This document shows, piece by piece, positions 1 through 37,546 of a stretch of DNA of 64,000 nucleotides. This DNA comes from Marsupella aquatica (Eukaryota > Plantae > Marchantiophyta), in assembly GCA_973895155.1 (NCBI GenBank), contig OZ316896.1, positions 3,448,738 through 3,512,737 on the forward strand, in the 5' to 3' direction. Every line of letters begins with the position of its first letter. The first letter of the stretch is position 1. The position numbers and the translations under genes are program-made. The notes under the pieces are model-generated. The model saw only the letters and a list, made by a program, of their open reading frames with translations, did not search any database and was not told the origin of the DNA.

Positions 1-8
1 TGTTTGAG

Positions 9-1079
9 ATGGTGGGAAGTAGAGGTGGCTTTGTGAATATTCACGCTAAGCCAAAATGTATGCTGCAGAGTATTATTGAATTTTTTTCGGCTGAAGGGGA
101 GACTATACTTGACTTTTTCTCGGGAGGACAGGTTATGAAGGTGTCATTGTTGTGTTTCAGAGAATGCTTTGCGTATTCAGACACTGAGGATGAATATGAT
201 TTCACTCAGGCATATGGAAGGGTTCTCTGCGAGAAAGTTCCTTCCATAATGAGTGATCGGATGGGCGGTTCCAAATTTGGTAGAGCCCGTGATGGGGTTT
301 CCGCGCATGTTGGTGCCAAAGAAGGCGTAGACCAGGGCAAAGATGATATTGAGGAAGGAGAATTGGGTCACGACAGGGTCACCCGAAATTTGGATGAACT
401 TGGAACACAAGTGGTAGGTATTCCCTACTTTGGTGTGGGGTTGGCTGATGTTGTGGGTCGACCTGAGGGTGACCCACCAAGAAATCCCTTTGCCGGTGTA
501 GAGAATTGGATGCACCAATCGGACCCAGATCTTACATCGTCCACATCGGACGCACATTGGAAGGCAACCGCAGATGGTCTAGGCAATATTGACGCAGTAG
601 AATTGGGAGAAATGTCAGACATTGCGCTTGCAAAGGAGGATGATCGTCAAGTACCTGAGACCGCTGCAAATGAAGAAGAGAAGGCAGGTGCTTCAAATCC
701 TCCCCTGTCTCCTCTATATTGCTCATCAGAGACTAAATTGGTTTTTACAAGTGCTTCTACAGGAAGCCCCATAGTATTATCATTTTCACAAAATTCTGGA
801 TCCGAGATCGGTAGGACTGGATATATGAAAACAGTCCGTCCTGCAACTCATTTTATATGGAGAAATGGACCAAAGGTTGGAATGATAGAATCACTAGACG
901 ATGCTCCAAAGATAATGGCAAAATCAGATTACAAAAAACTGAACTTGAGACTGAGCCCAGTTTTTGCACCCCCATCCTTTGAAGAGCAACTTCCCAGTGG
1001 TATCAATTCCGAGATACAAAGTGTTCTAGGTGATCAAACAATAGATGAATTTGGGCATTTTAGCATTGGAAATTATTAG
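9..1079 (+). CDS. 3' part of a gene (probably starting upstream of the window): C-terminal SAM-binding half of a beta-class N6/N4 DNA methyltransferase-like domain, then an acidic low-complexity tail
   Basis: VNIHAKPKCMLQSIIEFFSAEGETILDFFSGG follows the beta-class pattern 'KP..L...I...S..G..ILD.F.G' and parallels VNPYQKPIALADWFIKHFSEEGDWIADLCAGSG in ORF 34237-35145. The catalytic motif is not in the window. Confidence 0.6.
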   Translation: MVGSRGGFVNIHAKPKCMLQSIIEFFSAEGETILDFFSGGQVMKVSLLCFRECFAYSDTEDEYDFTQAYGRVLCEKVPSIMSDRMGGSKFGRARDGVSAHVGAKEGVDQGKDDIEEGELGHDRVTRNLDELGTQVVGIPYFGVGLADVVGRPEGDPPRNPFAGVENWMHQSDPDLTSSTSDAHWKATADGLGNIDAVELGEMSDIALAKEDDRQVPETAANEEEKAGASNPPLSPLYCSSETKLVFTSASTGSPIVLSFSQNSGSEIGRTGYMKTVRPATHFIWRNGPKVGMIESLDDAPKIMAKSDYKKLNLRLSPVFAPPSFEEQLPSGINSEIQSVLGDQTIDEFGHFSIGNY

Positions 1080-1121: not shown

Positions 1122-1268
1122 TGTTATAACCCATAATATGACTTAACCCTAGTATAGGATAGGTTAACATTAACCCAACCATGTTAACCCTTCTGGACTA
1201 TATAAGTCCTTGGCATAATGGAAGTGAGTGGGGATTATTGACTACTATCATCTTGTGTATTCATAACA
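1122..1268 (+). repeat. 5' LTR of copia-1
   Basis: TGTTATAAC...CATAACA, direct repeat of 6768-6914. Confidence 0.97.
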
Positions 1269-1814
1269 CGTTATCAGCGCGACTTGCTCAATTACATTTT
1301 TTTTACATGTGCTCCCTCCCCAAAATCTGACAACTCAATAGATCGAGGTCCACACAAAGAAAACAACACAATGTTGTGTGTTTTTTGCTCTAATGGCGAG
1401 AATAACCGCCTAACTACCTCCCGAGAATAGAGAAAACAAGCTTATGATCGAAGAACAAAGAACTGGCCATAGAGCGTCGAGCCTAATCACGAGCGAAGAT
1501 TCTCAACCTTGAACGAAGGAGACAACGCGACGAGACGCGAAAAACAAAATAAAAGACATTGGCGAAAACTGAAAACTTTGAGGACCGCACACAAGGACAT
1601 ACGAACGAACTCCATCGGGGACAATTTGGATGCGATTCAAGGGGCAGATGAGTCCCGTGCCTTGAGCGAAAGGATCGCTATCGTTTCTCTTTCTTTTGGT
1701 TAACTTGATCCATCACAACAGCCGATCGATCGGGCGGGACAAGGCGAAAGTCATAGGCATTTGATACAAAGGAACACCATATATTTATAAGGCCCAAAAT
1801 CAGGCGAAATAGAC

Positions 1815-4800
1815 ATGGCGACATTGGAGAAGTTACATTTCCCAACCCTACTAGTAGACGGCAGCAACTACTTGACATGGGCCGTAGATGCGGAAACATA
1901 CTTCGCATCGTTGGAGCTTGAAGATACATTAATCACAGACCAAAATCTGACTCTACAACAGAAGGCCAAGGCCGTGTTCCTTTTGCGCCAGCACTTGGTT
2001 CCCTCACTAAAATCCCAATACATGAACGAAGTCAATCCACGACTCCTGTGGGACAAGTTAAAGGCCCGATTCGACCATATGCGCGAAATATGGCTTCCTG
2101 AGGCTCGCCGCGATTGGTACAACCTACGAGTGATGGATCATACTTCCATTGCTAACTACAACAGCGCTCTATTTAAAATTACCTCTCAACTAGAACTCTG
2201 CGGCCATCCAGTCCTAGACGCAGATAAGATCGACAAGACACTGAGTACATTCCCCGAATCAAACATTGCACTCGGTACACAGTACCGAAATATGCAATTC
2301 ACCACATATTCAGATCTTATCGCACATTTACTTGTAGAAGAGAAGCAACAGGTGGTCGCCATGCAAAACGCCCGAAAAAGACCTGCGGGAACAGAACCAC
2401 CACCACACAAACCAGAGATAAATTACTATCAGCGAGATAACACGGGACGAGGCCGACCAAGAGGCAGAGGCGGATACCAAGGCAGAGGTAGAAACCAATC
2501 CTACAGAGGTCGAGGATATCGACAATCATACAACACAAGAGGCAGGGGAGTAGGCGGCAGAGGCAGGATGAGTGATAATGCATCGGACAACACCAAAGAT
2601 GACAGGATGTGCTACCGATGCGGAAAAATAGGACACCTGAAGAAAAATTATTGGGCATCGGACCAAACAGCCAGGAAACATACAGAATCAAGAGCTAGAC
2701 TCAAACAAAACCCAGCAGGGAACTACATGGAGCTAGAAGAAGCAATAGCCACCTACAAAGACCCCGAACAACCTCATGAAGTGGAGACCCACATAGTAAC
2801 TCCAGCAAGAGGACCCTACACACTACAAGACCCCAATCTGGGCATAATTGACAGCGGTACGTCTCATACAATACTAAAGGACAAGAAATATTTCCACTCA
2901 ATTACCCCATCAGCCCGGCATATGACCACCATTTCAGGCACAAACCAGATTGAGGAGGGTAAAGGCACAGCCACGGTAATATTCCCAGGAGGCACTGCAC
3001 TCGCCATCGAAGCAGCGATATTCGCCCCGCGAGCTACAAGGAACCTCATCAGCTTCCGAGACATAGTCGCAAATAAATATCAACTGCGCACAGTGAAAAC
3101 AGACGAGGAAGATACCCTCCAAATCGTGGAGGTTACCGAACAAGGTATACATATTAAAGAAACCTTACCCCTTATACCACCAGGCCTCTACGCAACTCAA
3201 ATTCAAGCTCACTATGTCACTGCAGACTTACCTGATATCACATACTTATGGCACTGTCGACTGGGACACCCCGGAGTAAATATGTACCGCAGAATTATTC
3301 ATGACTCCTGTGGAATCCCCCAAGGAGTCAACCCATCAACAAAACAAAGGCAATGCCTGGCGTGCTCTCAGGGGAAGCTGATTACACACCCACAAATACA
3401 GAAGACAATCTATGCCATCCCGAACTTCCTGGAACACCTGAACGCAGATGTATGCGGCCCGATCCACCCACCAAGTGGACCGTTTAAGTATTTCCTGGCC
3501 ATCATCGACTCTTCGACCAAATGGCTGCAAGTATCTCTACTCTCTACACGCAACTTGGTCTTCGCTAGGATACTGGCCAACATTCTAAAGCTTAAAGCAC
3601 AATTCCCAGAACATCCAATTCGGAAACTGAGAGTGGATGGTGCAGGGGAATTCACCTCAAAAGCATTCGATGAGTTTTGCTGGGCAGCGGGCATTGACAC
3701 TGAATACTCAGTCCCATATGTCCATTTCCAAAACGGAATGGCAGAATCCGTTATCAAGCGTATACAGATGATAACCAGACCCCTGTTAATGAATTCAAAG
3801 TTACCCCTATCCACATGGGGACACGCAGTCCTCCATGCTGCCACACTGCTTCAATACAGACCATCGGCGTTCAACACAAAGACTCCACACCACTTAGCGT
3901 TCGGACTACCTCCAGACCTGTCACACCTGCGGGTATTTGGATGCAAAGTCATGGTCCCAATACTGGGACCCAAGCGTACAAAAATCGGACCTCAAAGACA
4001 AGAAGGAATCTACATCGGAAATGACTCATCCTCGATCATTCGCTACCTGGAACCGACAACAGCCGATGTGTTTAAGGCCAGACATACAGATTGTCATTTT
4101 TACGAAGACACTTTTCCCACCCTAAGCATAGACAAACAAATGACAGGGGACTTGCACCCACACCAGATCAACTGGAACAGCAGAAACTTACTCAACCAGG
4201 ACCCGAGGACGAAACAAACGGATGCAGAAGTTAGACGATTACTCCACCTCCACGAGATGCTGGATAAGATCCCAGATGCATTTAATGATGCAGCAAATGT
4301 TACAAAATCCCACAACGAGGCAACCAATGTACCAGCCAGAGTACAAATGAATACTCCTCCAGCAACAGTAGCTGCCCCTAAGGCGAAAAGAGGTAGGCCA
4401 CCAGGATCACATGATACCCGACCCCGCCAAAGACGCCCCCATCAGGTAATTCCTGAAACTACTTTTCACTTCATTAATAATGAATCCGAGACACCAGACA
4501 TATCGGGTAATGAGGAGATGTCAATTCAGTATAAGCATACAGGACAAATTTACACGAGACAAAACACTACTGTCGACGAACAATTTGCTTACCATATAGC
4601 TCAAGAAATAACCAATGATACTTTGGACCCTTTAACAATCAAAGAAGCACAAACAAGGTCAGATTGGCCACACTGGAAAGAGGCCATTGACACAGAAATG
4701 GATGCACTAATCCGTCGACAAGTCTTCGGACCAGTCAAACAAGTTGATCCTAACAATGACTATACAGACAGCCGATTTACGTTCATTAAAAAGCGAAATG

Positions 4801-6428
4801 CAAAAGGTGATGTTATCAGATACAGAGCGCGGTTAGTAGCAAAAGGATACACCCAGATCCCAGGCAGGGACTATGATCTAACATATTCACCAGTAATGGA
4901 CGTGACGACATTCAGGTATTTAATTGCTTTCTCTCGCAAACACCAGTTATGCAATATCCTTATGGACGTAGTAACGACATACCTATATGGAGTCTTAGAC
5001 TCCGAAATTCATATGAAAGCACCAAAGGAATTACTCGAAAGAGTGGCAGAACACATTCAGGGGAAGCAATACCCGAACCTGAGCAAGGATATGAAGTCGG
5101 GAATTGACCAGATTATCCCTAATGATGATTGTAAAGGCCTTGTGTTGAGCAGTGGCAACACACAGAAAGCACCACTCCAGTACCCCGGAAAACGAAGGAC
5201 TGGACAGCAGGCATTTGCTGTGCAAGTATTGAAATCCATAAACGGCCTGAAACAAAGCGGCCGTATATGGTACCAGAAATTTAAAACCGAAATACAAGCA
5301 CTCGGATTTATTATAGAAGACATAGCGCCCTGTATATTCATCAAAAGAGTAGACACAGAGTTCGTCGTGTTAGCGCTATATGTCGATGACATTAATCTCT
5401 TCGGTACACAACGACTATTACGACAAACAATCAACACAATGAAGGGCATTTTCGAGATGAAAGAACTGGGAGAACCGACTTACTGCCTCGGCCTTCAGTT
5501 CGATCACCTACAGACAGGCACATTCATTAGCCAGTCTACCTATACAAACAAAATCCTCCAACAATTCAATATGCAAAAGGCATACCCGGTATCAACACCA
5601 ATGGAGCTGAGATCCTTAGACACTGCGAAGGACATGTTCAGGCAAAGACAGGACAACGAACCAATACTAGATTCAGATAAGCCATACTTATCGGCTATCG
5701 GAGCCCTCCTTTACCTGGCCAACAACACCCGACCGGATATATCCTTTGCAGTGAGCCTCCTCGCACGACATAGCGCGCACCCGACAATACGCCACTAGAA
5801 CGGCATAAAACGAGTATTCCGATACCTCCAAGGAACAATTGACATGGGACTATTCTTCCCCAACGAAAGCGAGGATGAACTTACAGGATACGCGGACGCT
5901 GGATACCTCTCAGACCCCCAAGATTCAAAGTCGCAGACAGGATACGTCTTCTTGCAGGGTAAAACCGCCATATCTTGGAGAAGCACGAAGCAGAGCCTAA
6001 CCACAACGTCATCGAATCACGCCGAAGTAATTGCCCTCTATGAGGCATGCCGCGAAGCGATTTGGCTCCGTAGTATAATCACACATATACTCAAACAGAC
6101 AGGAAAAACCTTACTCACAAATCCAACCACCATCTACGAGGACAATAGGGCATGCGTCGACCAGATAGTTACAGGCTACATGAAGACCGATCGAACCAAG
6201 CACATAGACCCGAAATTTTTCTTTACGCACGAACACAGCGGAAAGCAAATACAAGTAAAGTGGATAAGCTCACAAGACAATTGCGCCGACCTCTTCACCA
6301 AGCCGCTACCAGCGACTACACATCGAAAGCACGTCAGCGCCATTGGAATGCATCGTCTCTCCTCCCTAACCTCCTCGACTAACGACAACTCCCGACACGA
6401 ACACACAGCCAACGCAAAATCGAAGTAG
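1815..6428 (+). pseudogene. copia-1 gag-pol polyprotein (gag, protease, integrase, RT, RNase H) with one in-frame TAG at 5796-5798
   Basis: LVDGSNYLTW gag start, IIDSGTSH protease, LWHCRLGHP, DVCGP/VDGAGEF integrase, ALYVDD RT, GYADAG/IYEDN RNase H. RH*NG replaces the conserved RHWNG. Confidence 0.95.
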
Positions 6429-6767
6429 AACCTCGACAAACTACTAAATCGTAGTATCTAACGAACAGTTTACAGAGAGACACATGTTCCCCCGTCATGA
6501 ATACAATACTACCCCGACTAGAGTAACAAATAAACGCTTACTTACTCTTAGCCCACTGGCTTAGACAGTAATAGGCTACTTTTAGACTTAGAGCATACAC
6601 ATTAGAGACTTTCTGAATTAGGGACCACAAATTGTAATGATGGTAGTACTCTTCCTTGAGAGGAAAGCAGCAAGGTTTGATGAGGCTACATCATAAGTGA
6701 CTCCCACTTTTAAACTAGGGTTAAATGTGTGGTTCCTTGACACCCCGTCCAAGTAACCAAGGGGAAG

Positions 6768-6914
6768 TGTTATAACCCATAATATGACTTAACCCTAGTA
6801 TAGGATAGGTTAACATTAACCCAACCATGTTAACCCTTCTGGACTATATAAGTCCTTGGCATAATGGAAGTGAGTGGGGATTATTGACTACTATCATCTT
6901 GTGTATTCATAACA
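6768..6914 (+). repeat. 3' LTR of copia-1
   Basis: Direct repeat of 1122-1268. Confidence 0.97.
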
Positions 6915-7215
6915 AGCTTTATCTTTGTAATAATATACTTTTTTACAGACCAAAGTTCCGTCGTAGAATCTCCTTCCTCAAAGGATTTTGTTGGCATTCC
7001 CTCGGAAAGCGTTGCTGTGGAGGAAGGGTTTGACCCAGGTATACTTTGGATCTAAAAAATGGCAATTGAATGTAATTAATGTTTTTCTAGGAGGGTCGCC
7101 CCAGGGTCGTTCCTCTCTACTTCAAATGCTATAACAAAGTTTGTTTGATTTCAAATTTTGAGAGTTTTCCTCCGTAGTAATTGTTTAAACTTTGAGTCGC
7201 ATTGACTAAGGGCTT

Positions 7216-7863
7216 ATGTTAATGTTTCCAGAATTCACTCCAATACTACACTCTTCGATTCGGCGAAAGCTCTTGGTTCTTGACCTTAACAAGATTTGTT
7301 GGGATTGCATTAAGACCAGAAGCTCAGGACCATGGCGAAATCAGACAAGTTTACGTGGTGTGCACTGGGGGAGACGTGGAGGGTTTAATTTCATGTATGT
7401 GGAGCGCCCATACCTCCACGAATTTCTATATGCAGCTTTCATGGTTTTTGACGTCGCAATTTGGACCTGTGCAAGGAGGCCAAAAACAATGGACTTAATG
7501 GAGTTGATTTTCACTAAGGAGGAGCGACAGAAGTTCAAGTTTGTCTTTACTCAAGAAGATACCTTTGATAGTTGCATCCAAAGGCCAGATATAACAGATG
7601 GGAAGGCCAATTTACTTCTGAAGAATTTGCAAACCATTTGGGACCGTTTTCCAGAAAAATATGATGCTTCTAATACAGTTCTTATTGATGATTCTCAATT
7701 GAAGGCATTTTTGAATTATGACGTGAATGGATTGTTTCCAAATCCATTTACTCACACAGCTTCAAATGACACTTTTTTGCCCGAGATATTATGGCCGTAT
7801 CTTTGCAAATTGAGAAAGGCTTACTGCGTTCAACATTATATCACTGTCAACAATCCAAAGTGA
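7216..7863 (+). CDS. FCP1/NIF-type (CTD-phosphatase-like) HAD-fold protein, intronless
   Basis: RKLLVLDLN, RPYLHEFL, DVAIWT, LLKNL..IW and NTVLIDDS..K...N motifs. The catalytic DxDxT is altered to DLNK. Confidence 0.8.
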   Translation: MLMFPEFTPILHSSIRRKLLVLDLNKICWDCIKTRSSGPWRNQTSLRGVHWGRRGGFNFMYVERPYLHEFLYAAFMVFDVAIWTCARRPKTMDLMELIFTKEERQKFKFVFTQEDTFDSCIQRPDITDGKANLLLKNLQTIWDRFPEKYDASNTVLIDDSQLKAFLNYDVNGLFPNPFTHTASNDTFLPEILWPYLCKLRKAYCVQHYITVNNPK

Positions 7864-8788
7864 TCTGTTTTCAATTTATTAACAAGCAAGGCGGATCATG
7901 CTGCCATCTATGCTCTTTTGGAACAGAAGTGGGGAGATTGTCGTTGTATCCATAGGGAGTTTGGAACCATCTTGGATGTGACTCCTGAAGAGATTCCTTG
8001 GGACGGAAAGAACGAGGTGCAGCATTACCCACCACTGGAGACGTGGACCACGGATGAGATCGAAGAAACTGCAAACGTAATACTTGGAGACAACTATTCT
8101 GGTCCTCATACACAAAATAGAAGGCATTTTATTTGGAAAGTTCTCAGAACTAGGGATCTCACCAATAAGTTTAAGAACCACCATGCGAGAGATACTTGCA
8201 ACCGTGACATCCGCTATGATAAATCAGGAAGCAGACTTTCTTGTTCAAATGAGTTTTGTCTTGATCATTAGGAGATAGGGTTGCTCTAGTGCCTACCCTA
8301 AATTGTACATTCATATTATGTCTTGAAAGGATATGTTTTGAACATGTAGGATAAAGTAAATAATTAGGATATATGCTTAGTGTGAGGCTCTCTCACTGGA
8401 CTGGACAATTTAATAATTATATAGTGGGTCAATCTCATTTTGACCCTTGATTTATGACCATCTATATTTTTTAATTTATAGATGGTCTGAGTGGTATTGG
8501 CCTCTGATTTTTGGACTAAATTAAATTACTCTAATTTTTAAATTAATTAGAATATATGATTTAAGTTATTATTAAACATTTGGGTGAAAAAAAACAAAAT
8601 TTTGGGCATTCAAAAGTGTATATTTGGGCTGAAAAAATTTAGCTTTTGGGAATGCTTTAATAGAAATTTGGCCTGAACAAAAATAACTTTAGGGTTCATC
8701 TTATGGACTTTTAAAAGTACAGTTTTAATGAATATAGTGATCTTCCTAAAATTTCAATTTTCTTGTCAGAATTCATCACATGTATAGG

Positions 8789-9500: not shown

Positions 9501-10786
9501 TTATAGAAGTGAGCTACAATGGTGTCCCCCTAAAATATTTGAAATACTATAAACTGCCCACTGAGTTGTGCTATCCTCCCAATTTGCTTAATAGGTTTCA
9601 TTCTATGGACAAGTGAGTTCCTTGAAGTTGGGCATTCAATATAAAAAAGCTCGACTCCTAGAAGATCTCACATTTTGGATCAATTATGGTAGTTGTATCA
9701 TTCATTTTTGTTGTAGAATTGCACAATGTGTACAGATTGGGTGAGAATTTACTCATCTCTGTTCTAGACTATATTTGAACTTCAATTTCATGTTTGAATG
9801 CATTTTTCCTTGTCAATTTTGACTTGCCAAATTGGTGATTTTCAAAACTGCATTTTGCTTTTCACATGTATAACTATCAGTGAAATTGATTCAAGCTAAC
9901 TTAATTGTCTACTTAAATTGCAATAGCAAAGCATAGGCAAAATCAACCCATAGCCCAGAAACTGTTTTCAATTCCAAACTTAGACTTGGAGAATAGATTG
10001 CTTTTGAATTGTCAATTTCAACTTTAAGAATTGGAGCTCATCCGGGAGCTCATAACACTAGTACATTTTTGGTCTCTTTCCGATACTCAAATCACGGCTT
10101 CTTTTAGCCGTCCGAAACCAAACGCATCGGGCAACTTCCGATATTAAAACCATCGTAATTTCCGATTCATGATATATCGGAAATAAACGTACCGATGGAA
10201 AATGCTTCGCAAAAACTATCCCATACCAGAACTATCGAACAATGTCCGAAATTAATAGCATCGCAAAAAGACGACAAAAGTAAGGCTTTAGCTTCCGATG
10301 CAGTTACACTCGGACCTGAGGCTCGTTGGAAAAACAAACGGACATTGTCCGATATTTAAACCAACGGACATAATATTGGGAAAGACATTGCTTTGGAACC
10401 TACGTGCGATAGTTATAGTATCGGAAGTTGTCCGAAGGTAAGCATATCGGACCCCTCCTTCATCATTTTTGCCGAGGGGTCCGATGGTTTTTGGAACGGA
10501 AAAATGTGTCAGATAGGTTTTGAATCGCATGTGTCCCGTCACTTTCAATATCGGAAAGAGGTTTAGTTCTCCGGCCGAGTACCGATGCCTGTGCGATGTA
10601 GATTCCATGGGATTGACAATGGGACATTGTATTGTGGTCATGGTTTGATCCTGGATACTTGTAGCAATATAGTTTATGCAATGGTAGAGTGTGAGAACAC
10701 ATGAAATGTCGATAAATATGTAATGCCAATAAAATAGCCACAAATAAGATGGTAGGGGTTAGCTACGCCTTTGATGTACTAGATAT

Positions 10787-13700
10787 CTAACTAGTGGAGG
10801 GAATGTCAGTATCTTCCACTATAACTACGTTAGGTCTATCCTGGACAATGGATCGTGATCGTGGAATGTATGGCATGACAATGGACCAATCTGAGTCATC
10901 TGGATAGGGTAGGTAAAAACATTGTTCAAGGTGATGGGGGAACGCAAAGGGATCTGAGGACCTCCAGTTTGAGCTGATGACACTATTTGCGGTTGTCTTC
11001 AACCGGGTAAAACCGCATGCATCATCTTCACATGTCCGGTTGTGGCCCACAAGATTCATCTTGAACCATTTGCACTTTAATACCACTTCCTCCAAAGTAG
11101 TATGTGCATGGTACTTTATGGTAAGGATTTCCTCTATCTTTCCATAATGGGCGACGGTGGACCGAATGGGATTCCTGTCTGATGTGCTACTCTGTGAATC
11201 CTGGGTGAACCAACCCATCACCCCACAATCTTGTGTAGCTGCCCTCTTCTCATCAAGTCGTTCAACACGAAAATGTCTCCCCTTGGACCACATGGCTGTC
11301 CGAGTCGTGACTATAAGTAGTGGACCATGAATCAAGGTATGAAGCTTATCAGTCACCTTTGGGAAGTGTGATATGCTCTCCCCAATACCCACCAAGGCAT
11401 CCACTTCTAGCATCTTTGACTTCATGTATGGGTGAAACTTGGGAAATAATCATGGTCGCCGACTATTTTTCTTCTCCTCCTCATAAAATGTTGTCCACTC
11501 CCCTACAACCTCTGGTGAATTATACAACATAAATGTTGTGAGCTGCAAACGCTCCGCTGAGCTCAAGAGACGCTCTCCTGATGCCCCAGTGAGTCTATCA
11601 TCCTCATAGTCCGCCTCTCGTGCTGCCTCATGTATCCATCCCCTAGGAGCGTTAGGATCTAGTGTGGCAACTATGTTTGTACAATAAAACATACTCTCTG
11701 CTCCAAGATGACGCTCTGCAATGCTACCTTCCACCCTAGCGCGATTAGAGACGTACGACTTCATCACCCCCATATAACGCTCAACCCAATACATCCATCG
11801 ACAATGCACTGGGCCTGCAATTGCAACCTCCTGCACTAAATGTATGAGAAAATGAACCTGGCCATCAAAGAAAGAGGGAGGGAGTGCCTTCTCCAACTTA
11901 CAAATAACCTCTACTCCAAATATCTCCATTGCAGCAGTTTCATCCTCCTGTACCTCCTTCTGACATACCCATCTCAAAAGCTTTCCCAATGACCAAAGGG
12001 CATCACGAAGTTCCTCACTACCCAATCCAATAATCGCAACTGGAATGACATGTTCTAGTAACCGATGATAATCATGTGTTTTCAAGTAAGATGGCCATTT
12101 TGGAGAATCATCCCCCCCAAATGCTTTTCGGAGATTTGCGCCATAACCTGTGGGAAACCTCATTGACCCAATACGTCTGCGAAACTCAGTGCGCTCTGCC
12201 CTAGTCAAAACCCAAGGTGGATGGATGCTAGGGGGGTCTCCAGGGGGGTCCAAAGATGGCCAAAAACCAAGAAGACCATGCATCCCCATCTCCTCACAAC
12301 TTTCTCTCCAATTGTGGTTCTTCTCCCCATATAGATGACGAATCAATGACCTCCCCACATTCCCCTCAATGTGCATCGGATCTAACAAGTGATTAATGGG
12401 CATCTCTGACCAATATGGCAACTGTGATAATGCAGACAAACGGGTCATCCCACATCTGAGAAATTGTAATGGATCATCTGGGTCTTGAACTCTTTGCCAT
12501 ACCTCTCTCCAATATGCTGGATCCTTTCGCTGAGGTTGAGGACGGGTATCAGGTTGGCCCTCATTAGTGTCATACAGGAAGTGGTCACTCCTCCAAGGAT
12601 GGTCTGCTGGAAGATATTTAGTATGACCAATGTAAACTATCTTCCGCAAAGTAGTTGACTTGCGTCTTGCCACTCCCTCCAAATCTGGTCCACATGAAGG
12701 GCAAGCTCGATAGCCTGATGTTTGCAATCCAAAGATATATCCAAACCCTATGATTGGTCAAGGGACAGCCAGCCAATGAAAGAAGGTTAGAGAAAAGAAT
12801 ACAATTTTTAATTAAGTGCAAGATTGATGAAATAGGGTTAAATTAATTGCAAGGTTTACTGTGATTACCTGGTAAATCATGCATGGTCCACATAAGAATG
12901 GCCTTGAGGGTGAATGCGCGAGATAAACCTCCAGTGTTGCGACGTCCGTCATAACAATCCACTCCCCTCCAAAGTTGCAAAAGCTCATCAATCAAAGGTT
13001 GCAAGTAGATGTCAATCTTTTTTACTTGCTTAGGACCCGGGATGATCATTGAGAGTAGTAGATGACCTTTCTTCATGGCCATCCATGGAGGGATATTGTA
13101 GTTTGTTAGAACTACTGGCCATACTGAATATGGTTTTGCTTTACCTGCCAATGCAAAAGGGCTAATACCATCTGCTGCCAATCCAAGTCTCACATGTCGT
13201 GGGTCAGTTTTGAACTCACCCCATCTATCCTCTACAAATTGATTGGCAGGAGAGTCAACCATCATTCGCATGGCACTGGAGTCTGTACCCATATCAGAAC
13301 GATGTTGTGAGTGCCATACCATATACTCAGCCAACTCTGCACAACGGTATTGATTTCGCAATCGAGGGATGAGAGGAAAATACCGCATAACTTTTTGAGG
13401 CACCTTCCCTGTCAACATGTCATCACGGTACCGCGGCTTCTCACACTCAGGACATATGATTGCATTTTCATGCTCACCCCTAAAAAGAATGCAGTCATTT
13501 ACACATGCATGTATCACTTCATACTTTAGACCAATGGACTTCAACACCTGTTTAGCCTCCTTCCAAGACCTTGGCATGTTGTTGCCTGGTGGTAAAATGC
13601 GATCATGTAGGGTACGAAAAACATCATCCAAAAGTAGGTTGCTGGCCCCATGTCTTTGTTGCACATTCAACAATAACATTATTGCTGAGAGCCGAGATAA

Positions 13701-15428
13701 CCTACTCCCCTCAAATATGCGAGTACGAGCATGACGTTGAGCCTCTTCCCATTCCTTCTGCTGGCCCCCCCTAGAAGGATGAGTGGTGTTGTCGTCGGTG
13801 AAACCCATCTCCTCCATACCAATATCAGCATCATCTTCATAAAATTGGTTCATGAGCTCATCCATGGCCTCCTCATCTTCAAGCCGATCTTGGGTAGAGT
13901 CATCATCCTCATGTTGTACCTCATTCTCCTCCCCATCATTCGCCACCATGGCCTCAACAAGGTGTTGCCGCATAGCTCGTGATATTACCCCAATATCAGG
14001 CACCACATATTGATTCTATCATACAACATCAATGCATGCAATCTCATCAACATCAATATTGTGAACAACCAATTATCCAATGTTAAAAATGGAAAAGAAT
14101 CCGATATATATATGTATATATGTAAGTCCAAGAAACTATCTTGGACGGGAACGTAGGGACAATTTTGGTGCATCCCACTCATAATCACACAATAACTCCT
14201 CACCAGCTCTAATGGTCCTAACAGCGACCGTCATGATGTGATCATCCATATGTTTCACAAAATATGGAGCTCTAGGTGGACCAAACATCTGGATCCACTC
14301 TACATTAGCCTCCAAATCTCTACCTCTACCCGTGGTACTATTGATGTACCCTGCTAAATTACAATTCCGAACAGGGTCACCATCAATCATCCTACAATGC
14401 CACGGCCTAGTGAAGACCTCGTCTGGGTCTGAGTCCATCCTTAATGCGTACACCCCCCAACTTGGGTGTTGACGCAACAAAATGTTCCAACTCTTAGCGT
14501 TGTATACAGCTCCAATGTAAGGGAAAAGGTGCTCTCCATCATAGCCACGTCTCCATGGCTTTGGAGGGACAATAATGTCCTCCAAAGCATATAGACCATA
14601 TCCTATATCAGCACCAATGGAGGAATCTTTCACTATCCAAGAGTGACCCCATATCTCAACCGGTTCATTAATAGGAATGTAGTCTGGAAATTTGAAGAGA
14701 CTAGGATCAAAGTCTTTCAAAATGTCAGCTGCCCTACCAGTGAGATAAGATGCTCCAAACCGTCCATCAACCCCAATATAATCTACGTTGTTGGATGGTT
14801 GGGCACTGCCTAACACCTCCTCCCTGTTGTCTACCTGTTCCAGTGGCTCATATTGCCGTCTACATCTACGAGACCGTGGTCGTGTACGTAGGACTCTTGT
14901 ACACCCAACCTCCGGTCGAGAGACCGGTTCACCCTCTACATGCTCGACTATGGGGATAGGAGCAGGGGGGCTAAGAGGTGGATGGGCAAGGGGGGATGCA
15001 AGCAAGTCCCTTGCCCTTGCTAGAAACCCTTCTAGCCACACAGCATCATCAACCAAAGGAGGTGGGGGTCTACGAGGCACCTATTTCAACACACAATAAA
15101 TTAAGTAGTGTTATTTGAATGCAAGCTAATTATATACAATATTTCACCAATTGCCGTTTCATGAAATGAAAGGGGGGATGTATGTATAATTATTTACCTG
15201 GCTAGGCAAATAACCTGGCATATCACCCTCATGGCGACCATAGTTCTCAATGTGCTCACAAGTCTCCCAGGCATGTCGAACCACAAGTCCCTTGCATCTC
15301 ACACACCAGCAAGGTATGGGCCCTAGTGGAGCACGAGGACGGTCAAGAGGAGGGGGTGGAGGAACCTCCCCCTCGGACAAGCTTGTGTCAGAGTCTGAAT
15401 CCGATGTGGAACTATCGGATGTAGACAT
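10787..15428 (-). pseudogene. CACTA TnpD-like transposase (transposase-associated CxCxxC, Transposase_21, DUF4218, DUF4216). Predicted exons 15428-15198, 14015-12869, 12747-10787. In-frame TGA at 11452-11450.
   Basis: CWCVRC, IHACVNDCILF, RLGLAADG, YSVWPV, HDLPG, DPMH, KTHDYH, WMYWVER, KCKWF and DPFAFP motifs. GT/AG sites join the exons in frame. The stop is read through in frame into ORF 10787-11425. Confidence 0.9.
14136..15080 (-). CDS. SET-domain (lysine methyltransferase-like) exon inside the CACTA transposase gene
   Basis: GYGLYALEDI (SET motif I), YIG, DGDP...NLAGYINS (RFINH-like), ANVEW, VAVRTIRAGEELLCDY. AG acceptor directly before 15080. Open for 314 codons. Confidence 0.85.
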   Translation of the reverse strand: MPRRPPPPLVDDAVWLEGFLARARDLLASPLAHPPLSPPAPIPIVEHVEGEPVSRPEVGCTRVLRTRPRSRRCRRQYEPLEQVDNREEVLGSAQPSNNVDYIGVDGRFGASYLTGRAADILKDFDPSLFKFPDYIPINEPVEIWGHSWIVKDSSIGADIGYGLYALEDIIVPPKPWRRGYDGEHLFPYIGAVYNAKSWNILLRQHPSWGVYALRMDSDPDEVFTRPWHCRMIDGDPVRNCNLAGYINSTTGRGRDLEANVEWIQMFGPPRAPYFVKHMDDHIMTVAVRTIRAGEELLCDYEWDAPKLSLRSRPR

Positions 15429-16603
15429 CTACATACATATCCAACATGTAAGTTAGATTAAACAACTTCTTGTGTCGATGTATATACAAACATAATTAAG
15501 GAGATTTACATAGAGAGACATTGCCCTACGTACCTCAATGATACCCGCGCTTTGCTGTGCCTATTGGGCTATATTCTCGACACACAAAGTGTGGGATATC
15601 CAAAGTCTCTACAAGGTGGGCATTTCAATAGTGAGCTAAGTGAAAAAAGTGCACGACATGCACACCTCGGCAAACGATGTGTCAAACTTGCCAAAGTAAA
15701 CCTCTATGTTACAACCTGAGGAGAATACATGGATGGGTCAAGAAACATCATACCTCTTGGATGCGTGGTCTCACGCTATGCATAGTGCATTATCAAAAAA
15801 GACTACCAACCCCCCTCAAAAAAACTAATTAACCTACCCCTCCATGCCAAAATCAAGGTACTGCACATCATATCCAAACACAAACATTAGCCTAACAATG
15901 GCTTCATGTTATCATAAGAAAATGTACAACACTATCCTCATAAAAACCCTAAACCAATGTCTCAAGCAAGACTATATAAGAATTGCATCATTATAGCCTA
16001 ACATATTAGGTATGCACAACCAGAGTAAAATTATCCCCCAAAAAATGAAAATCAAGAACAAACCCAAAAATTGTATCCGTGAAGAAGGAACTAGTATGCA
16101 CAAGAGTCACATGCACGTCACGGTCACCCTCCCAGTGAGGTATGTATCACCCTACATCAAAAAACCTGTCAATTCAAATGGAAAGAAAATGTTAACACAA
16201 CCATACCCAACCCAAATTCAAAAAACCCCAAAACTCTAGAATCCATACCCAATTCAACCCATTTAACTAAACACATCACACCCCCTTAATTTGGGAAAGA
16301 AAAGGTGCATCCGAAAGAATTCTACGAGGGGTCCGATACTATAAGAAACGAACAAACCTTGGCAAACAAAAGGCAACCCATTAACAATGAGGGGTCCGAT
16401 GTCAAACATATCGGAAGGTCCGATACCAATACCGATGTTCTCGGCTTCGGAAAGTCCGAAGCAATTTGCATCGGACGCAACAGGCCAGATTTCAAAAAAG
16501 AAGTCCCGACGCTGGTGCGAAGACCTGCGAGTCGGGACAAGCTTCGCACTTGACACTTAGGCTATTGTCGAGGCTGGGAGGGGAGCTCAAAGGAGGAGGG
16601 GAG

Positions 16604-19115
16604 ATGGTGGGAGGTGAATCTGGTGGTGGGGATGGGGCTGGACCTTCTCGGGCATACGATGAGGTGATGAAGGAGATTTTTGTTGCTAGGGCCGGGTTGA
16701 GTGTGGAGGATGCAGCTAGAGTAGTCCCGCTTTTGCAGACCTTGTTTGATGCCTCAAAGATTGAGGCTGAGAAAGCTGCTGTAGCAGCCATTGCAGCTGC
16801 AAAGAAGAAGAAGAAGGAGGCAAAGAGAAGCAGGGCAGATGCAGAGGAGTCTCTCTCTCCTCGAAAACGAGAGAAGAAGCTTCGGAGGGAGGCTAGGGAA
16901 GCTGAGAAGGGGCGAGTAGAGGAGCTCAAGCGAAAGGAAGCAGAGAGAGTTTTGAGGCCTGAGCTACCCCTAAACTCAGGTGGCTCTCCATTACCCAGGG
17001 GCTACAATCTCTTTCGCAGCCAATTCAAACAAGTGGTGCGGGCCAATTTGGGGCCATTAGATTACTGGGGCAAGAAGAAGGAGAAAGAGAAATCCAGAAT
17101 TCGAGAGCAAGTGAAAGAACGATTCAAGAACGGGGCACACATTGATGATAGGTTCTTGAACAAGAGGATATCCGCCTCACTCTCAGACATGCGAAACCAT
17201 CAAAGAGAGAAATTCAGGAACTACCTTGCTGAGATGCCGATGGATGCAGAGGTGGTCAGGGAGCAGGGCTGTCCAGATGCGCTTTCCTCAGATGAGTGGG
17301 CAGCTTGGCTTGAGGAGGAACTAGCAGTCCGAGCCTGGCTGCAAAAATGTCACTACAATCTCGAAATCAGCCTGGCAGAGGAGAAGAGGAAAGCTGGAGA
17401 GGAAATTGACATCCTCCCCCTCCAACAGATGCTACGACAGTGGCATGCACAAGAGGTAAGACTCCCCAAGCCACCAAAGGACATCATAGCAGCTTTGCAG
17501 CGAGTGCAAGGTCGACCTGTGGTCACTCACCGGATGGGGCAAGGCGGCTCCAATCGACTGAAGGCCGAATTTGTAAGTCCCCTCTCCCTCCTCCCTAGCT
17601 CCTCCCCCCGACCACCTGACCTTCTGTTGTGAAGAGTGACCATTTTTTAGCCTCCAAATGCTTTAAACCCTTTGCGGCCCGATGGTGTAATTTGCTCTCG
17701 GCCCTGTGCTTTCCGATAGGTGTCGATTCTTTCTGCATCGGACCCGGCATCGGACCTCTTGTTATTCATTTTTTGGCACTAACGTTCTGAGGCAGTTCCG
17801 ATGCTAAGACAATCGGATGGAGAATCGGACCCCTCGTGGAAAGCTTAATTATCAGGTTTTGTGGCATTTTTAGGGGGCTTATAGCAATAACTGTTTAACT
17901 TTGGTATTAGGTTTTAGGGGTTTCATGATTGAGTAGCACTTTGTGGAGTTTTTTAAATTAGGGTTAAATTTGAGAACTAGTTTGATTAGGGGTTTATATA
18001 TAGGGTATAGGATATGTATGGGTATGTGGCAGGGGTCCTATTTTAAATTAGGGTTTACTATGATAACAGTTTTAATGAGGGGTATGTAGGGTGTGCATTA
18101 TGGGGTCCAAGATTGCTTGGTTTCATGCTAATGGGATATTTTGTTTGGGACTGTGAACTGCCAGGAAAGGGAGTGGGGTAGACCTATTGGGCCATCCGAG
18201 AGGGATTTGGCAAAGAGGAATGGACCCCGCGCTCTTAAGCGCCACCTTGAGGATGAGTTGGGAGAGGTTTGTGTTCCCCCTAGGTTATGAAAATGTTTTT
18301 GGTTATGGTGAATTTGTTAGAGTTTTGGAGGCCCTATATAAACTAATTTAACAACAATTTAATCCTAGCTATGTATTGCGTAGGAGGAGGAGTCAGGATC
18401 GGATGAGGAGTCAGGTGGGGCAGGTGATGAGGATGCAGGTGATGAGGACGGTGGTGATGAGGATGCTGGTGATGAGGATGCTGGTGATGAGAATGCAGGT
18501 GATGAGGATGCAGAGGATGCGGCAGGGTCGGCGAGAGTGGCCACGATTACCCCTATCCCTCATGTTGCCCCCACATCAGCAGAGGGTGCTGGTTCACATG
18601 ATGCTGATGGTGTGGGCTCCCATCATTCAGCAGCATCACGGGGTGGTAGGCCCGGGCCGTCAGGGGGTAGTAGAGGTTGTGTGGGACCAGGCCATCGGTC
18701 CGGGGTACATAGTGCACCAGCTGGCCCTCCACGACGAGGGACTAGTGACATACAGGATGGTGGTTCTAGGGGGCGAGCGCCATCTCGTGAGTCTGGTGGG
18801 AGTACAGCACGGCACGGGCCAGAGACAACACATGCAAGTGGAGCATCCCATCACTCGCGTAGGTCTACCGGAGAGGGCTCCTTCCACTCTGCTGTGTCGG
18901 GGGGTGGTGGGACATCTGTCTTGCCTGAGCACCGTAGTGGTGCATCTAGTGGTTCAGGGTCTAGACCTGCATCAGGCCAACCCACGCCATCCGCTGAGCA
19001 GGTGGCTACCACGGTTGTGGGCAGCCACCAACATGAGGGGTCTCGCGCTCCCGAACCTGTACCCCGCCCACGCTCTCGCCCAAAGAAGAAGAAGGGACGC
19101 AACACACCTTTTTAG
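16604..19115 (+). CDS. Second CACTA gene (TnpA-like/unknown), divergent from the transposase. Predicted exons 16604-17572, 18165-18266, 18384-19115.
   Basis: Three exons joined in phase 0 by GT..AG. Coiled-coil and basic NLS stretches, HRMGQGG motif, acidic GDEDA repeats, G/S-rich tail ending in PKKKKGR. Confidence 0.7.
18420..18520 (+). repeat. 15-bp coding tandem repeat GGTGATGAGGATGC(A/T), encoding GDEDA
   Basis: About 6 consecutive units visible. Confidence 0.85.
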
Positions 19116-20258
19116 AGGTTTGTGGTACATAGTGTCTGATAGCTTTGATTAGAGGTACCACATAGTGTAGGCCAGTTAGAGCCTCATTTTGGTGTTTCAT
19201 GTAGCCGTCACCGGCCATATGGCTCTACTGCCTACCTAGGCCCATTGTGAAAACCTGATATTTAATTCAACCACTACCTTGCTTTGAGCATGCTCTTTGG
19301 ACCCTATTTTGTCAATCTCAGCCTGAACCCTAAACCTAAACCCCCAAATGATTCCCATGAATCCAATATTAAACCCCCACAAACCCTAAATATCCATTAT
19401 TAGTCAAGCCGGTGACCCAGCTCATATCCGATACCATACGCTACGGAACTTCCGAAGTAAACTATTTCGGACCCCTCCTCCCAAATGTCCGATATTTTCA
19501 GCATCGCAATTTGCATTACACACCACTACGGATGTCCCGATACATATTGCTACGCAAACTCCGATATGTTTTACATCGGACTATCCCATATAAAATACAT
19601 CGGACCCTTGATATTACCTTTTGGTGGGCCTATAGTATCCGATGAAATTAGAATCGGACACAAATTATCCGAAACATTCAGTAACGGATGTACCGATTGT
19701 ATCAGAAATGGAAATTCCGATGGATGTCCGATTGTCGATATCCAATGGGTGAAGTATGGGAAAGTGCGAAGTAAATCACATCGGACGGGTCATTTTTCTG
19801 CGTCAAAATTTCTGAAGGGGTCCGATGTTGTTAGGATCGGAAAAAGGGCCGAAAATGTACTAGTGTAAGGACTGCATTTTGTCTTCTCAATTTTGACTTG
19901 AGAATGGGACCGAGCCTTTCAGGACTGCGTGTTGCTTTCAGTGATGTATTGTTGCTGTGAATTTTGAGTGAGATTGAGTACTTTGCACAATTTACATTTT
20001 GACTTTGTTCATTGTTGTGTACTGAAAGAAGACGATTGCACAGATCAAGTAATAAAAAAAAGTCAGCATTTACGTTGGACAAAACTTTCCAGTTCACAAA
20101 CAGCTAGACCAAACAACAATCCATGGCTTTAATAGATGTAGGGCATTGACCTAACAGAATTTAAAAAGTTACTAGAATCATTCTTTGACAGCATCGCTCG
20201 GAGAGTCTATGTCATCATCAAAGACACCTTCAGGCAATTCAACCTGTTCATGCAAGTG

Positions 20259-26863: not shown

Positions 26864-28968
26864 CTCTCTCTTCTTCCCAACTACCAACAGGTCTAGTAGT
26901 AGAACAGTTTTCTCCATTGCACGCCGCACCGGTGATCGTACCGGTGTTACTTGTTCCTCCTCAAATGGTATCAGCTCTTCCTCAGACTCTCCGTTTAACT
27001 GTTGCAAACCTAAAGCTCCACCGACGTCAATTCTTCCAGTATTCTCCGAGTCACTCTGAATATGAGAAAATCATGAAAAAATGTCTTTTTTCAAAAATTC
27101 TCATAAAACTCAAAATTTAACACCGCCGCGTAGCCCACAAAGCTAGGAGTCCAACGTTGAAAGTCAAAATCAAAATTGAAAATTGACGGAAAAGTTATTC
27201 AAATTTTGGTTGGGGTGGGTAAAATCTTGGGAAACTCCCCCGTTTTAACCACCTTAGGGAATAACCAAAATACCTAGTATAACCCGTCATCGGAATTGAG
27301 ATTTGATTGGTGCGCCGCATTGCTAACTTGAATGGCTACGACCTCGCCAAAAAAGAACCAAAATAATTATTGTTTGGCGCACAGAATCTTTGTTGGATGG
27401 CCAAAAAAAAGCTCTATGTTTTTTGGGAATAATCCTGCACAGTTTGACAGGGCTCAAAGGGGGCCGGTCCCCCTGTCAAAGCGGTTAAAATGGAGGGCGG
27501 CATGTCCCGGCACAAGGGAGAACCAATAAGAGGGAAAAAAAGGTAAAAAGTGGGCCGTAAAGGGGGTGTTTAAGCCTCTTACCAAAAGGTGGTATAAATG
27601 GTCAGGGATACATAGTGGGCGAGGAGTAGGGGGCATAAAGGGGGTGGCGTGCGTGCAGCTACAGCTACGTATGCAGTTGGATACAGGGTGGCGGGGCATA
27701 CCATCTCCGTGCGTTGGAGAGGGGCGCCAGCAGGAGGCGGTCGCAAAGGGGCAGGGCATGGCAGGGCCGATCGGAGGGAGAAACCAGCCCCTGGTGAGCG
27801 CACGGTCACGCGTAAGCGCCGGCCGGCGCTCGTGACCAGCCGAAGGGAGAAACGGGGGTGAAAATGGGGGAGTATCGGGGGAAACACGCTGACCAACCAA
27901 ACAAGAAGTGTGACGACCAAACGAGAAGTGTGTTTTGATTTTCGCAAAAAAATGGCAAAAAATATCTTAAATTGATATCAAAAACACAAATTCTTAGATA
28001 TATGCAAAATTGGATCCAACATCAAATTCCAAATTGAGATACTTTTTGACAAAAAATGGAAAATCACTAAAATCTTGGATTTTAGAACAATTGATCCCAA
28101 AAATATTTGTCAAACAGAAAACCCATAAAACAATGATTTTCAAGTCCTATTTCCGCACACTAAATCAATTCGCCCGGAAAAACTTGAATAACACAAATCT
28201 CCATTTGACAAGCAAATCATTCAAACCCAAAATGGGATACGCCGTATCCCGTTTTAGATTCATCCGTTGAAAATCAAACAAAAACACGCTAAGTTGATCA
28301 TTTGGGGCCTTTAGTTATCATATCGGCTAAACTAGATTTGAATGTTTATCAAAGGTAAAACGATGTATTGCATAAACTTTACTAGCGACCACGGTTGACC
28401 AACGCAGTCAATTAAGTTAACTCAAGTAGATGGTTGGACATATTGTAGACCGTTTATTTCCCAACCGCCAACCTCCATCTAACAAATTAGAGATATGAAT
28501 ACCAACAAGGATCCATGGATCCCATTTTATTTCCCAAGTCCAAAAAGAACTTAGCCAAAAGTCGGGGTGAATACGAAATGGGATCCACGGATCCCATTTG
28601 GTATTCACCCTTCCAAATTTGCCATTGTCGAACCCCCGCGTTGCTAAATCAACGTTTGAATACCAATCGGGATCCATGGATCCCATTGTCCGATCCAACT
28701 CAAGAAACAAACAATTTTGGAATACTCTTTTCTCTCAAAGATCAATTTTCTTCTCGTTTAAAGATTTGTACGGACCAATGAATGGAAGCCACGTGGACAC
28801 ATTCCCAAAAACTATATAAGAACAAGCTTGCATATGATTCTGTCTTCAGTTTTTACAACTCATTTTAGGTTCTCAAATAGTGAGTCTCTATTTTCCTAGA
28901 TTGGAGTCACCGGAACGTTCCACTCCCCATAGGAATCCTTAGTCTTATAGAACCTTGATACTATCTCA

Positions 28969-31900: not shown

Positions 31901-32952
31901 GATACTCTTGTGGATATTCTACAACGGACATATTCTCCTCAAGCAGATGTAATTTTTGTGGATGAAGTTGTGGACTTCAGAAAATTTGTGAATGAGACCG
32001 ACCAACCAAATGACAACAGAGTTTCAGGTCGAGTTTTGAGAGATCTCAACCTCATAACTTTTCAAAGACAATTCAGATTCAAGCGAGGCATTGTAGATGA
32101 CAACGAAGTGACCATGTTTCATGGGAAACATCTATCTACAACCTTTGATTGGGGAGACGTGGTAGCATTTGTCAACTACATCCCCACTTCAAGAATGTGG
32201 GTTGTAGCACAAATGTCACTAAAGTCAGCAAAAGGTGTTGAACGGGATGATGATTTGATGGACTCAAATGGTGCATTATCCATTCTGGTGAAATATCAAA
32301 AAGCAATTCAAGAGGGATTCAATTACTTTGACGATGAAGATAAACTATGGTGGATGACATTCTTTGAGAAGCAAATGATGTTATCAAAAACCACTTAGAG
32401 GAGGGTGAGTGGTTATTTGAATGGGTTTGGCCACAACAAAATGAAAGGCGTGGACTTGGTGGTGTGTCAAAAAATCAGATTTCGAAGTTCGAAGATGTTG
32501 ACCCAACTCTAGTTGATAAGGTTGTAGGACCACAGAGGATTATTTACTCAGGTCCTCGGCGAAAGCAACCTGAACTTGGAGATTTCAAAGATATGAAAGT
32601 GAACAACAAATGGTCAATGATATGCGTAGCAGCACACAAAGATCCAGAAGGCAAGTTATTTTGGATGGCAAAGGTGTCAAAGATTTTGACAAAAAGAGAA
32701 AACATTCCGGAAAGAATCAAAATCACGTGGTACACAACTGAGGCAAGTGCTGAGACTGCAATTGATGGAAAATATTTTCCAGAAAAAGATAATGTATCTA
32801 ATAGACTTTGTCAAGATGAACTTGTTTTGTCGTCAACAGCAATATATGCATACAATTTTGCGCTTTTGACAAATAACCAAATAGTAGCAAAAACAAAGAA
32901 GATTATAGAGGCTGCTATTTTAGAGCGAGGTTCTGTATCTTCAGAAGATTGA
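28969..32952 (+). pseudogene. DDD/E transposase, Sola-like (DUF7869-type), frameshifted, with a repetitive N-terminus and a Tudor/PWWP-like C-terminal segment
   Basis: YSCCDKFCL, WKKKF..V.IPKRSRFSTCCPC, ICIDGMDQ, LYLQLDNTTRENKN and FLLVGHMHDQIDQMFS motifs. FWMAKV...ITWY in 32464-32952. Probable intron near 31251-31356. Confidence 0.75.
29557..29905 (+). repeat. Four 16-bp palindromes GGGATCC-NN-GGATCCC at a 111-bp period
   Basis: Starts at 29557, 29668, 29779, 29890. The first three are read in frame as GIRGSH in ORF 29416-29865. Confidence 0.9.
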
Positions 32953-32966
32953 GTTTCATTTACTAA

Positions 32967-36443: not shown

Positions 36444-36522
36444 CCTTCATGTCATCGACCAGGAGGAGGTTTGTTGTTTTTAGAATGACTGTGGTCTTCT
36501 GAACTCTTTTTGTCTCCATTAA

Positions 36523-37467: not shown

Positions 37468-37546
37468 TTTGCGTAGAATAAACCACCTGTTAGAATTTCA
37501 AGCCTCATATGGTCCAATTAGGCAACAAGTCCATAATCCAATGTGT

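Follow-up and report, generated by a model that had tools for sequence, protein, structure and literature searches.

The stretch of DNA analyzed here, below called the window, comprises 64,000 nucleotides of the liverwort Marsupella aquatica (assembly GCA_973895155.1, contig OZ316896.1, positions 3,448,738 to 3,512,737 of the forward strand) and consists of repeat-rich plant DNA. It contains a complete CACTA (En/Spm) transposable element of 9810 bp (10056-19865), in which an exon encoding a SET domain is nested within the transposase gene. The element begins with CACTA at 10056, ends with TAGTG at 19865, has 14 identical terminal bases and is flanked by the 3-bp target duplication TAA (10053-10055 and 19866-19868); such terminal inverted repeats belong to the definition of CACTA elements (PMC4158355). 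Subterminal clusters of the motif TCCGA/TCGGA are present at the left end (10056-10600, 14 motifs, 25.7 per kb) and at the right end (19400-19865, 15 motifs, 32.2 per kb), which is 17- to 22-fold over the 1.5 per kb found in the window outside the element. Two genes diverge from the middle of the element: the SET/transposase gene on the minus strand and a second open reading frame, ORF2, on the plus strand. Between them lies an internal motif cluster (16290-16500, 8 motifs, 37.9 per kb), the region of which is likely to be their shared promoter; one more cluster (17700-17830, 6 motifs, 45.8 per kb) occupies the first intron of ORF2. The observed/expected ratio of CpG is 1.05 over 16290-16600, compared with 0.41-0.48 in all exons, and ranges from 1.05 to 1.50 in the motif clusters (16290-16600, 10056-10600 and 19400-19865); the terminal motif itself contains CG, and the high values in the clusters could stem from selection acting on the motif or from local shielding against methylation.

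The first coding exon of the minus-strand gene (15198-15428; 231 nt, 77 codons) encodes a serine/proline-rich start and then a putative zinc site, CxCxxC-x15-H, with the residues C-W-C-V-R-C, and ends with CAG|GTAAAT in phase 0; an AG directly before its ATG suggests an intron in the 5' untranslated region. The proximal acceptor, AAATAG| at 15080, is also in phase 0, would close a predicted first intron of 117 nt (15081-15197, minus strand; GT...AG, 72% AT) and opens 314 codons up to a TAG at 14138-14136. This SET exon (14136-15080, minus strand) comprises a proline-rich linker followed by a SET domain that is extended at its N-terminus (about 14789-14170), and its joining to the first exon would give a product of 391 amino acids ending at 14136. 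The distal acceptor, GATAG| at 14015, likewise in phase 0, lies behind an intron of 1182 nt and opens the transposase frame, while a third phase-0 AG, at 15125, reaches a stop after four codons. The 120-nt spacer between the SET stop codon and the distal acceptor (14016-14135, minus strand) is predicted to hold the 3' end of the SET message together with the distal acceptor region; it is AT-rich and intron-like (72% AT, 44% T), and no AATAAA was seen in its sequence. Thus, the donor at 15198 and the two phase-0 acceptors at 15080 and 14015, from which the initial annotation had deduced that one promoter could yield either the transposase or a zinc-SET protein, were all confirmed in the sequence.

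Behind the distal acceptor, the transposase exon (12869-14015, minus strand; PF02992, Transposase_21, E 3.8e-40) begins at an AG|AAT junction shared with related loci. A predicted second intron (12748-12868, minus strand, phase 1, CAG|GTAATC ... CATAG|GG) restores a single frame across Transposase_21, and related loci break at the same place. The last exon (10787-12747, minus strand) encodes the end of Transposase_21, DUF4218 and DUF4216, the latter at 29.1 bits, just under the cut-off of 30.6. The spliced frame of 1112 codons is interrupted once, by the in-frame TGA at 11452-11450 (codon 892), so that this copy lacks the unbroken transposase frame of an autonomous element, while the SET reading frame is open over all its 314 codons and closed by its own stop, the very contrast that had been pointed out beforehand. 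The best homologs are CACTA transposases, the nearest named one being from Riccia sorocarpa. In a midpoint-rooted tree of 34 transposases, the SET-linked, the other Riccia and the P0168 and P0169 rows formed one clade of 10 with a support of 100/100, the other rows being 22 from the angiosperm set and two unnamed.

The first exon had been described as a transposase-associated domain with a CxCxxC motif. The motif is there, but no Pfam match to the exon, including PF13963, was obtained. A profile built from eight such exons matched the N-termini of 91 CACTA transposases with an hhalign probability of 86% (E 5e-6, 31 columns), a comparison which is partly circular, as these N-termini had been chosen for CPCxxC. 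The exon holds only the cysteine-histidine core of the PF13963-type region, and no conserved peptide that might represent the missing N-terminal half was found upstream in 15429-16600 (best E 0.9). In the ENA protein P0168 the CxCxxC motif stands directly before the transposase with no SET domain between them; therefore, the first exon is most simply the transposase's own start, with the SET exon placed in the intron behind it.

Of 204 candidate loci from a scan of metagenomes, 24 were confirmed as relatives. Most of them are copies of one family; the locus L001 represents a second lineage and L022 a short and more distant one, which makes about three independent DNA lineages. The SET domain is followed by the transposase in 12 of the 24 loci, preceded by the CxCxxC exon in 9 and accompanied by the divergent ORF2 in 6, most of the remaining loci being too short to show parts of the layout. 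The splice sites are more than a chance pattern: 11 of the 24 loci show the donor motif, 15 the SET acceptor upstream of the SET domain (four pattern matches downstream of it were dropped from the count) and 17 the AG|AAT transposase acceptor, with one mutated to AA and one at a contig end. The splice phases are 0 wherever the frames were read. The proximal intron is 111 nt long in L001 and 117 nt in L006, and the introns and spacers of the relatives match those of the window at only about half their positions. The loci L006 and L008 have a common CACTA end with different flanks, and the SET exon is therefore part of the mobile unit.

Compared with the window, the metagenome lineages are 40-47% identical in the SET core and 52-55% in the transposase, with synonymous sites saturated. 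Between L001 and 10 copies of the second family, the ratio of nonsynonymous to synonymous substitution rates (dN/dS) of the SET exon is 0.26-0.36 at dS 0.46-0.58; for the pair of L001 and L002 it is 0.26 with a bootstrap 95% confidence interval of 0.16-0.40, and the interval for the zinc exon of the same pair is 0.13-0.90. By these substitution ratios the SET exon is kept across element lineages under purifying selection. The alternative, that a host gene fragment was captured by chance and is decaying neutrally, could draw on one abundant family, within which the SET dN/dS varies from 0.22 to 1.41 and stops interrupt the SET stretches of 5 out of 11 loci; such decay is, however, expected of dead insertions, and the transposase of the same family behaves alike (0.43-0.86). 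The ratios between lineages refute this alternative unless L001 lies outside an element, and no host SET class is close in the comparisons with PDB sequences and structures, so that we regard it as extremely improbable. Capture of the Pack-CACTA type was ruled out by the recurrence in other loci together with the between-lineage dN/dS. Hence, the possibility raised at the outset, namely that the SET reading frame occurs in this copy only or evolves neutrally, does not describe the data: the layout recurs in other lineages and dN/dS between them stays below 1.

The profile of the SET family matches 135 clusters at 50% identity. The named sources among 30 proteins looked up were Calypogeia (3), Riccia (6) and Adiantum (1), with a Ginkgo-style identifier elsewhere; the fern and Ginkgo members are more distant than the Calypogeia and Riccia relatives. 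Among the relatives with a named source, that of the leafy liverwort Calypogeia fissa comes closest to the SET exon (72% across the domain); its gene model, P0001, connects the zinc exon to SET at the junction predicted for the window. The Riccia models P0026 and P0038 and the Logan protein P0029 also join CxC and SET. In a FastTree phylogeny of 67 SET sequences, unrooted and calculated with no outgroup, the window sequence adjoins Calypogeia P0001. The distant members P0079, P0299, P0087 and P0300 (Calypogeia), P0142 (Adiantum) and P0152 have different N-termini, those of Calypogeia occurring as near-identical copies on different scaffolds, and the SET clade may ride on other elements too.

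Judging from the frames, both the SET exon and the transposase exon need an upstream exon, the former because the GxG motif, at residue 160 of 314, already lies ahead of its first methionine at 215, and the latter because conserved residues precede its first methionine: it opens with V-P-D-x(3)-[ILM]-x-R-x-[LM]-R, common to Riccia and, more loosely, to the metagenome family, and in the window the first methionine is residue 15, behind the V-P-D stretch. It could nevertheless be argued that there is no either/or choice, the SET domain and the transposase having separate starts or being fused through a donor inside the SET exon. In L001 and in the L002 family a methionine does lie within a few codons of the SET acceptor, and in the latter also behind the transposase acceptor, but the window SET exon has none before residue 215. 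The four Riccia models P0062, P0084, P0088 and P0167 do put part of SET onto the transposase, but each of them thereby loses part of the domain; each of the 15 loci read has a stop that closes SET; in the window, there is no phase-0 GT behind the last conserved tyrosine, and no more than 120 nt lie between the stop codon and the distal acceptor. Spm elements are reported to have moved between spliced and separate genes (PMC13547354). On balance, we find the absence of a splice choice very unlikely. A SET-transposase fusion with SET as a cassette exon was rejected, as there is no phase-0 donor behind the SET domain in the window.

The SET exon has PF00856 as its only Pfam domain (E 3.5e-5; 24.6 bits against a cut-off of 22.4). 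A structural model of the domain of about 210 amino acids, predicted from 78 sequences, reached a pLDDT (predicted local distance difference test) of 90.8 and replaced an earlier one from 11 sequences (pLDDT 63). The top ranks in Foldseek were SETD8, LegAS4 and MLL1 (E 2e-7 to 7e-7), and structural alignment with 628 chains resulted in a tie of Set1, SETD8, EZH2, SET7/9, ASH1L and LegAS4 at Z 11-12, a root-mean-square deviation of about 2.2-3.7 and 16-29% identity. By sequence and model comparison alike, the exon thus encodes a real SET domain, as had been supposed from the translation. The motifs GxG, YxG, GEELxxxY and Asn-His-Ser (NHS) of SET domains serve in cofactor and lysine binding, and the first three, including the terminal tyrosine, are present in the exon. 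In the 78-row alignment, with the numbering started at window position 14789, the conserved residues are G63 (69/73), G65 (74/74), Y/F91 (75/76), G93 (74/76), N150 (70/77), E198 (66/68) and Y203 (64/67). In this family, the position that is tyrosine in mono-methylases, and at which a small residue allows the addition of more than one methyl group, usually holds Cys, Ala, Val or Ile.

In the NHS motif the asparagine is kept in 70 of 77 rows, and histidine is replaced by serine in 75 of 77. This absence of the histidine would suit a self-restraining role, in which the near acceptor draws transcripts away from the transposase and the zinc-SET protein either writes a repressive mark or, lacking activity, acts by binding to methyl-lysine or by competing, via the zinc site that they share, with the transposase; the better context of the near acceptor (AG|GT and a CTTAAT branch-like site) points in the same direction, and P elements and Ac are known to have their transposition controlled by splicing (PMC4158355). 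On the other hand, the residues of the cofactor site and the catalytic positions rank with the most conserved ones, a constraint that would be needless in a mere splice sink. The best profile match of the family in the PDB is Legionella LegAS4 (E 8e-6), the search with the single sequence having given nothing under E 0.78. LegAS4 also lacks the NHS histidine and is nevertheless a histone H3K14 methyltransferase (bioRxiv 10.64898/2026.05.29.728679), therefore the loss of this residue does not imply a dead enzyme. We consider self-restraint distinctly unlikely. LegAS4/RomA (PDB 5czy, 8swi) shares the same His-less YIN motif and has no post-SET cysteines in the aligned part, but it is only 22-26% identical and reads H3 with ankyrin repeats of its own; given this and the structural ties, its H3K14 specificity cannot be transferred to the nested SET domain.

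Another possibility is that the splice choice and the enzyme are as supposed here, the substrate being a non-histone protein (the element's own transposase, ORF2 or a host silencing protein), and that the modification tunes transposition. The SET family has no reader domain or post-SET extension, since 65 of 67 rows end 2-28 residues after the last tyrosine; SET7/9, which ties with the histone enzymes in structure, has non-histone substrates; and the shared first exon would place the zinc-SET protein beside the transposase. The closest profile match, LegAS4, is in contrast a histone enzyme, and the accessory genes of other transposons are described as chromatin or DNA modifiers (PMC12730594; bioRxiv 10.1101/2025.02.11.637652). 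We therefore rate a non-histone substrate as unlikely and retain a histone as the preferred one.

The origin of the SET clade also deserves mention. Its neighbors in the Atlas are haptophyte and giant-virus SET clusters (score 0.95-0.97), and viral structures match the model no better than host enzymes do, with E values of 1e-6 or weaker. Pattern scans, which reach close relatives only, confirmed none of 92 candidate stretches in viral contigs and none of 100 in prokaryote genomes. A viral or bacterial, non-host origin is a lead only.

The Marsupella element shares with En/Spm of maize and with SPM3 of Arabidopsis the CACTA ends, the 3-bp duplication, the Transposase_21 gene and the clustered subterminal motifs; its TCCGA clusters, at both ends and inside, resemble the TnpA target clusters of Arabidopsis Spm (bioRxiv 10.64898/2026.08.24.746577). 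Two products of one transcription unit are known in En/Spm, where TnpA and TnpD arise from one gene by alternative splicing (bioRxiv 10.64898/2026.08.24.746577; PMC13547354) and TnpA-TnpD complexes have been predicted (PMC13547354), and are predicted here. However, the alternative product of En/Spm is a helix-turn-helix binder, whereas that of the Marsupella element would be a SET protein, the second reading frame being separate and divergent. Arabidopsis Spm TnpA is reported to bind clustered motifs via two helix-turn-helix units and to activate cognate copies by recruiting host DNA demethylases (bioRxiv 10.64898/2026.08.24.746577), i.e., it acts without a catalytic domain of its own, while the Marsupella candidate is itself a SET domain.

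ORF2 (16601-19115, plus strand) has predicted exons at 16601-17572, 18165-18266 and 18384-19115 and encodes about 601 amino acids, with no break seen in its frame. In the 6 loci with ORF2 the homolog has the same position and orientation, and the window protein is 31% identical to that of L023. No usable or significant match to any family, PDB entry or Atlas cluster was found, and a pattern scan of viral contigs, which reaches close relatives only, confirmed none of 106 candidate stretches. An identification of ORF2 as TnpA from likeness by eye (Trp, a helical stretch, HxxGxGG) was confirmed neither by profile comparison nor by family searches. By position, ORF2 is a candidate, as yet unproven, for the TnpA equivalent, and it is a better candidate for the sequence-specific binder than the zinc exon, because the binder of Arabidopsis Spm is TnpA, with its two helix-turn-helix motifs.

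Starting from the observed layout and its conservation, the purifying selection, the SET fold and the motif residues, we propose the following sequence of events. One promoter between the divergent genes would drive the zinc-exon transcript, in which splicing of the zinc exon to the near acceptor would produce the zinc-SET message, ending in the 120-nt spacer, and skipping to the far acceptor the transposase message. The near acceptor would probably be the default, so that most of the product would be zinc-SET and the transposase would be made less often. The zinc-SET protein is predicted to methylate lysines with S-adenosylmethionine and may add more than one methyl group, because of the small residue in place of the mono-methylase tyrosine. 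It may mark a lysine in a histone tail on the family's own copies, which is the weakest step; it would be brought to these copies through the shared zinc exon and through ORF2 protein attached to the TCCGA clusters, and the resulting mark would keep the element transcribable against host silencing. Taken as a whole, this chain, from a nested SET exon and a splice choice in a liverwort CACTA transposase gene to an anti-silencing histone mark on its own copies, seems to us somewhat more probable than an even chance. A bolder version, in which an old liverwort CACTA lineage encodes a histone writer of a non-host clade, switched against the transposase by the choice of the 3' splice site and delivered to cognate copies by the zinc exon, with a possibly non-canonical mark that overrides H3K9/H3K27 silencing, is possible but doubtful.

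Several observations weigh against the proposed chain and should be read together with the Riccia fusion models, the loss of the NHS histidine and the methionines near the SET acceptor in L001 and the L002 family, the last of which speak against a dependence on the upstream exon. The proteins supporting the exon junctions are gene predictions only; the metagenome loci belong mostly to one family, and L016 has no transposase match in the 10 kb behind its partial SET domain. The tyrosine of YxG is replaced by Phe in 18 of 76 rows, and with the fold scores tied, the structure favors no substrate class. A comparison of ORF2 with the TnpA-type profile gave a probability under 1%. Finally, the exons of the Marsupella copy are depleted in CpG, and therefore the family has not escaped body methylation.

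As cargo of transposons, SET domains are known from other systems. The red-algal Plavaka gene PAG2 (EnSpm superfamily) is described as carrying SET (PF00856) as long-lived cargo of untested function (bioRxiv 10.1101/2025.02.11.637652). By description, it is a separate gene in elements of 17-19 kb, with an N6-adenine DNA methylase fused to SET, whereas the Marsupella SET exon is nested in the transposase gene and has no methylase partner; none of 39 SET relatives scanned contained PF01555. HarbingerS and MuDR elements of Phytophthora carry SET genes (cited in PMC12730594), and the SET domain of proto-Helentron-Pi is an intronless, Clr4-like reading frame of its own (PMC4067079). These are SET-encoding DNA transposons as well, but of other superfamilies and oomycete hosts, and a shared first exon is not described for their SET genes in the parts of these sources that were available. 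The VANDAL protein VANC resembles the zinc-SET protein in that an element encodes it as an accessory factor, with a proposed role in lifting the silencing of cognate copies, but it belongs to the Mutator superfamily, is not a SET enzyme and is reported to have an activity that has been shown, while that of zinc-SET is only predicted. In SETMAR/Metnase, SET and transposase exons are joined in one gene, which is a fixed host gene producing a single fusion protein; the Marsupella SET exon differs in being mobile and a predicted terminal alternative exon with its own stop. No report of a SET exon in a land-plant CACTA element was found in a literature search that left out Repbase, subscription journals and supplements, among them that of a survey of 962 Spm structures. 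Such an exon is not described in the available portions of PMC11982613 and bioRxiv 10.1101/2022.10.24.513474, and a 2026 review of gene capture by plant transposons makes no mention of 'SET', 'methyltransferase' or 'bryophyte' (PMC13317346). Thus, SET as transposon cargo is known, while an arrangement in land plants in which it is nested in the transposase gene and shares the first exon of that gene appears to be undescribed.

The remainder of the window contains further mobile and duplicated sequences. The region 28200-40200, with arrays of palindromic GGGATAC/GTATCCC and GGGATCC repeats, includes a DUF7869 reading frame (31589-32395, E 9e-42), an N6/N4 DNA methylase reading frame on the minus strand (34240-35145, PF01555, E 2e-8) and a reading frame with no Pfam match (35505-36446), the GGNH motif of which recalls ParB-like domains; overall, the region resembles a second element equipped with a DNA methylase cassette and calls to mind Plavaka PAG2/PAG3. 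The reading frame at 3-1076 (plus strand) shows at its start a match, below the cut-off, to the C-terminal portion of a DNA methylase motif (PF01555, E 0.01); it is perhaps another copy of such a cassette and ends just ahead of a copia-type retrotransposon (1122-6914), a recent insertion with two identical 147-nt long terminal repeats (LTRs) and a pol frame with one stop at about 5796. A NIF-type phosphatase reading frame (7210-8271, plus strand; PF03031, E 1e-16), followed by a second in-frame reading frame after one stop, may be cargo of another element. An inverted duplication of about 3.5 kb (45175-48851 and 58984-62486), 79-98% identical in pieces, contains a STIG1-like gene, and an LTR element (49354-54870) and a cupin/germin-like gene (57246-57971) lie between its arms.

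Liverworts and hornworts are reported to silence many transposons with H3K27me3 as well as with H3K9 methylation (bioRxiv 10.1101/2022.10.24.513474), and a lysine methyltransferase borne by an element would directly counter such silencing at the histone level. The plant anti-silencing proteins that have been worked out, VANC and TnpA, are not histone writers, and for the several transposon groups that carry SET genes no tested function was found in the sources as available. Switching by splice choice between a mobility enzyme and one that acts on chromatin would represent a novel way for a transposon to control itself, and, if the bolder version holds, no plant transposon before this one would have been shown to write histone methylation on itself. 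The family is compact and occurs in genera related to the transformable model Marchantia, which makes the role of transposon-borne SET domains directly testable.

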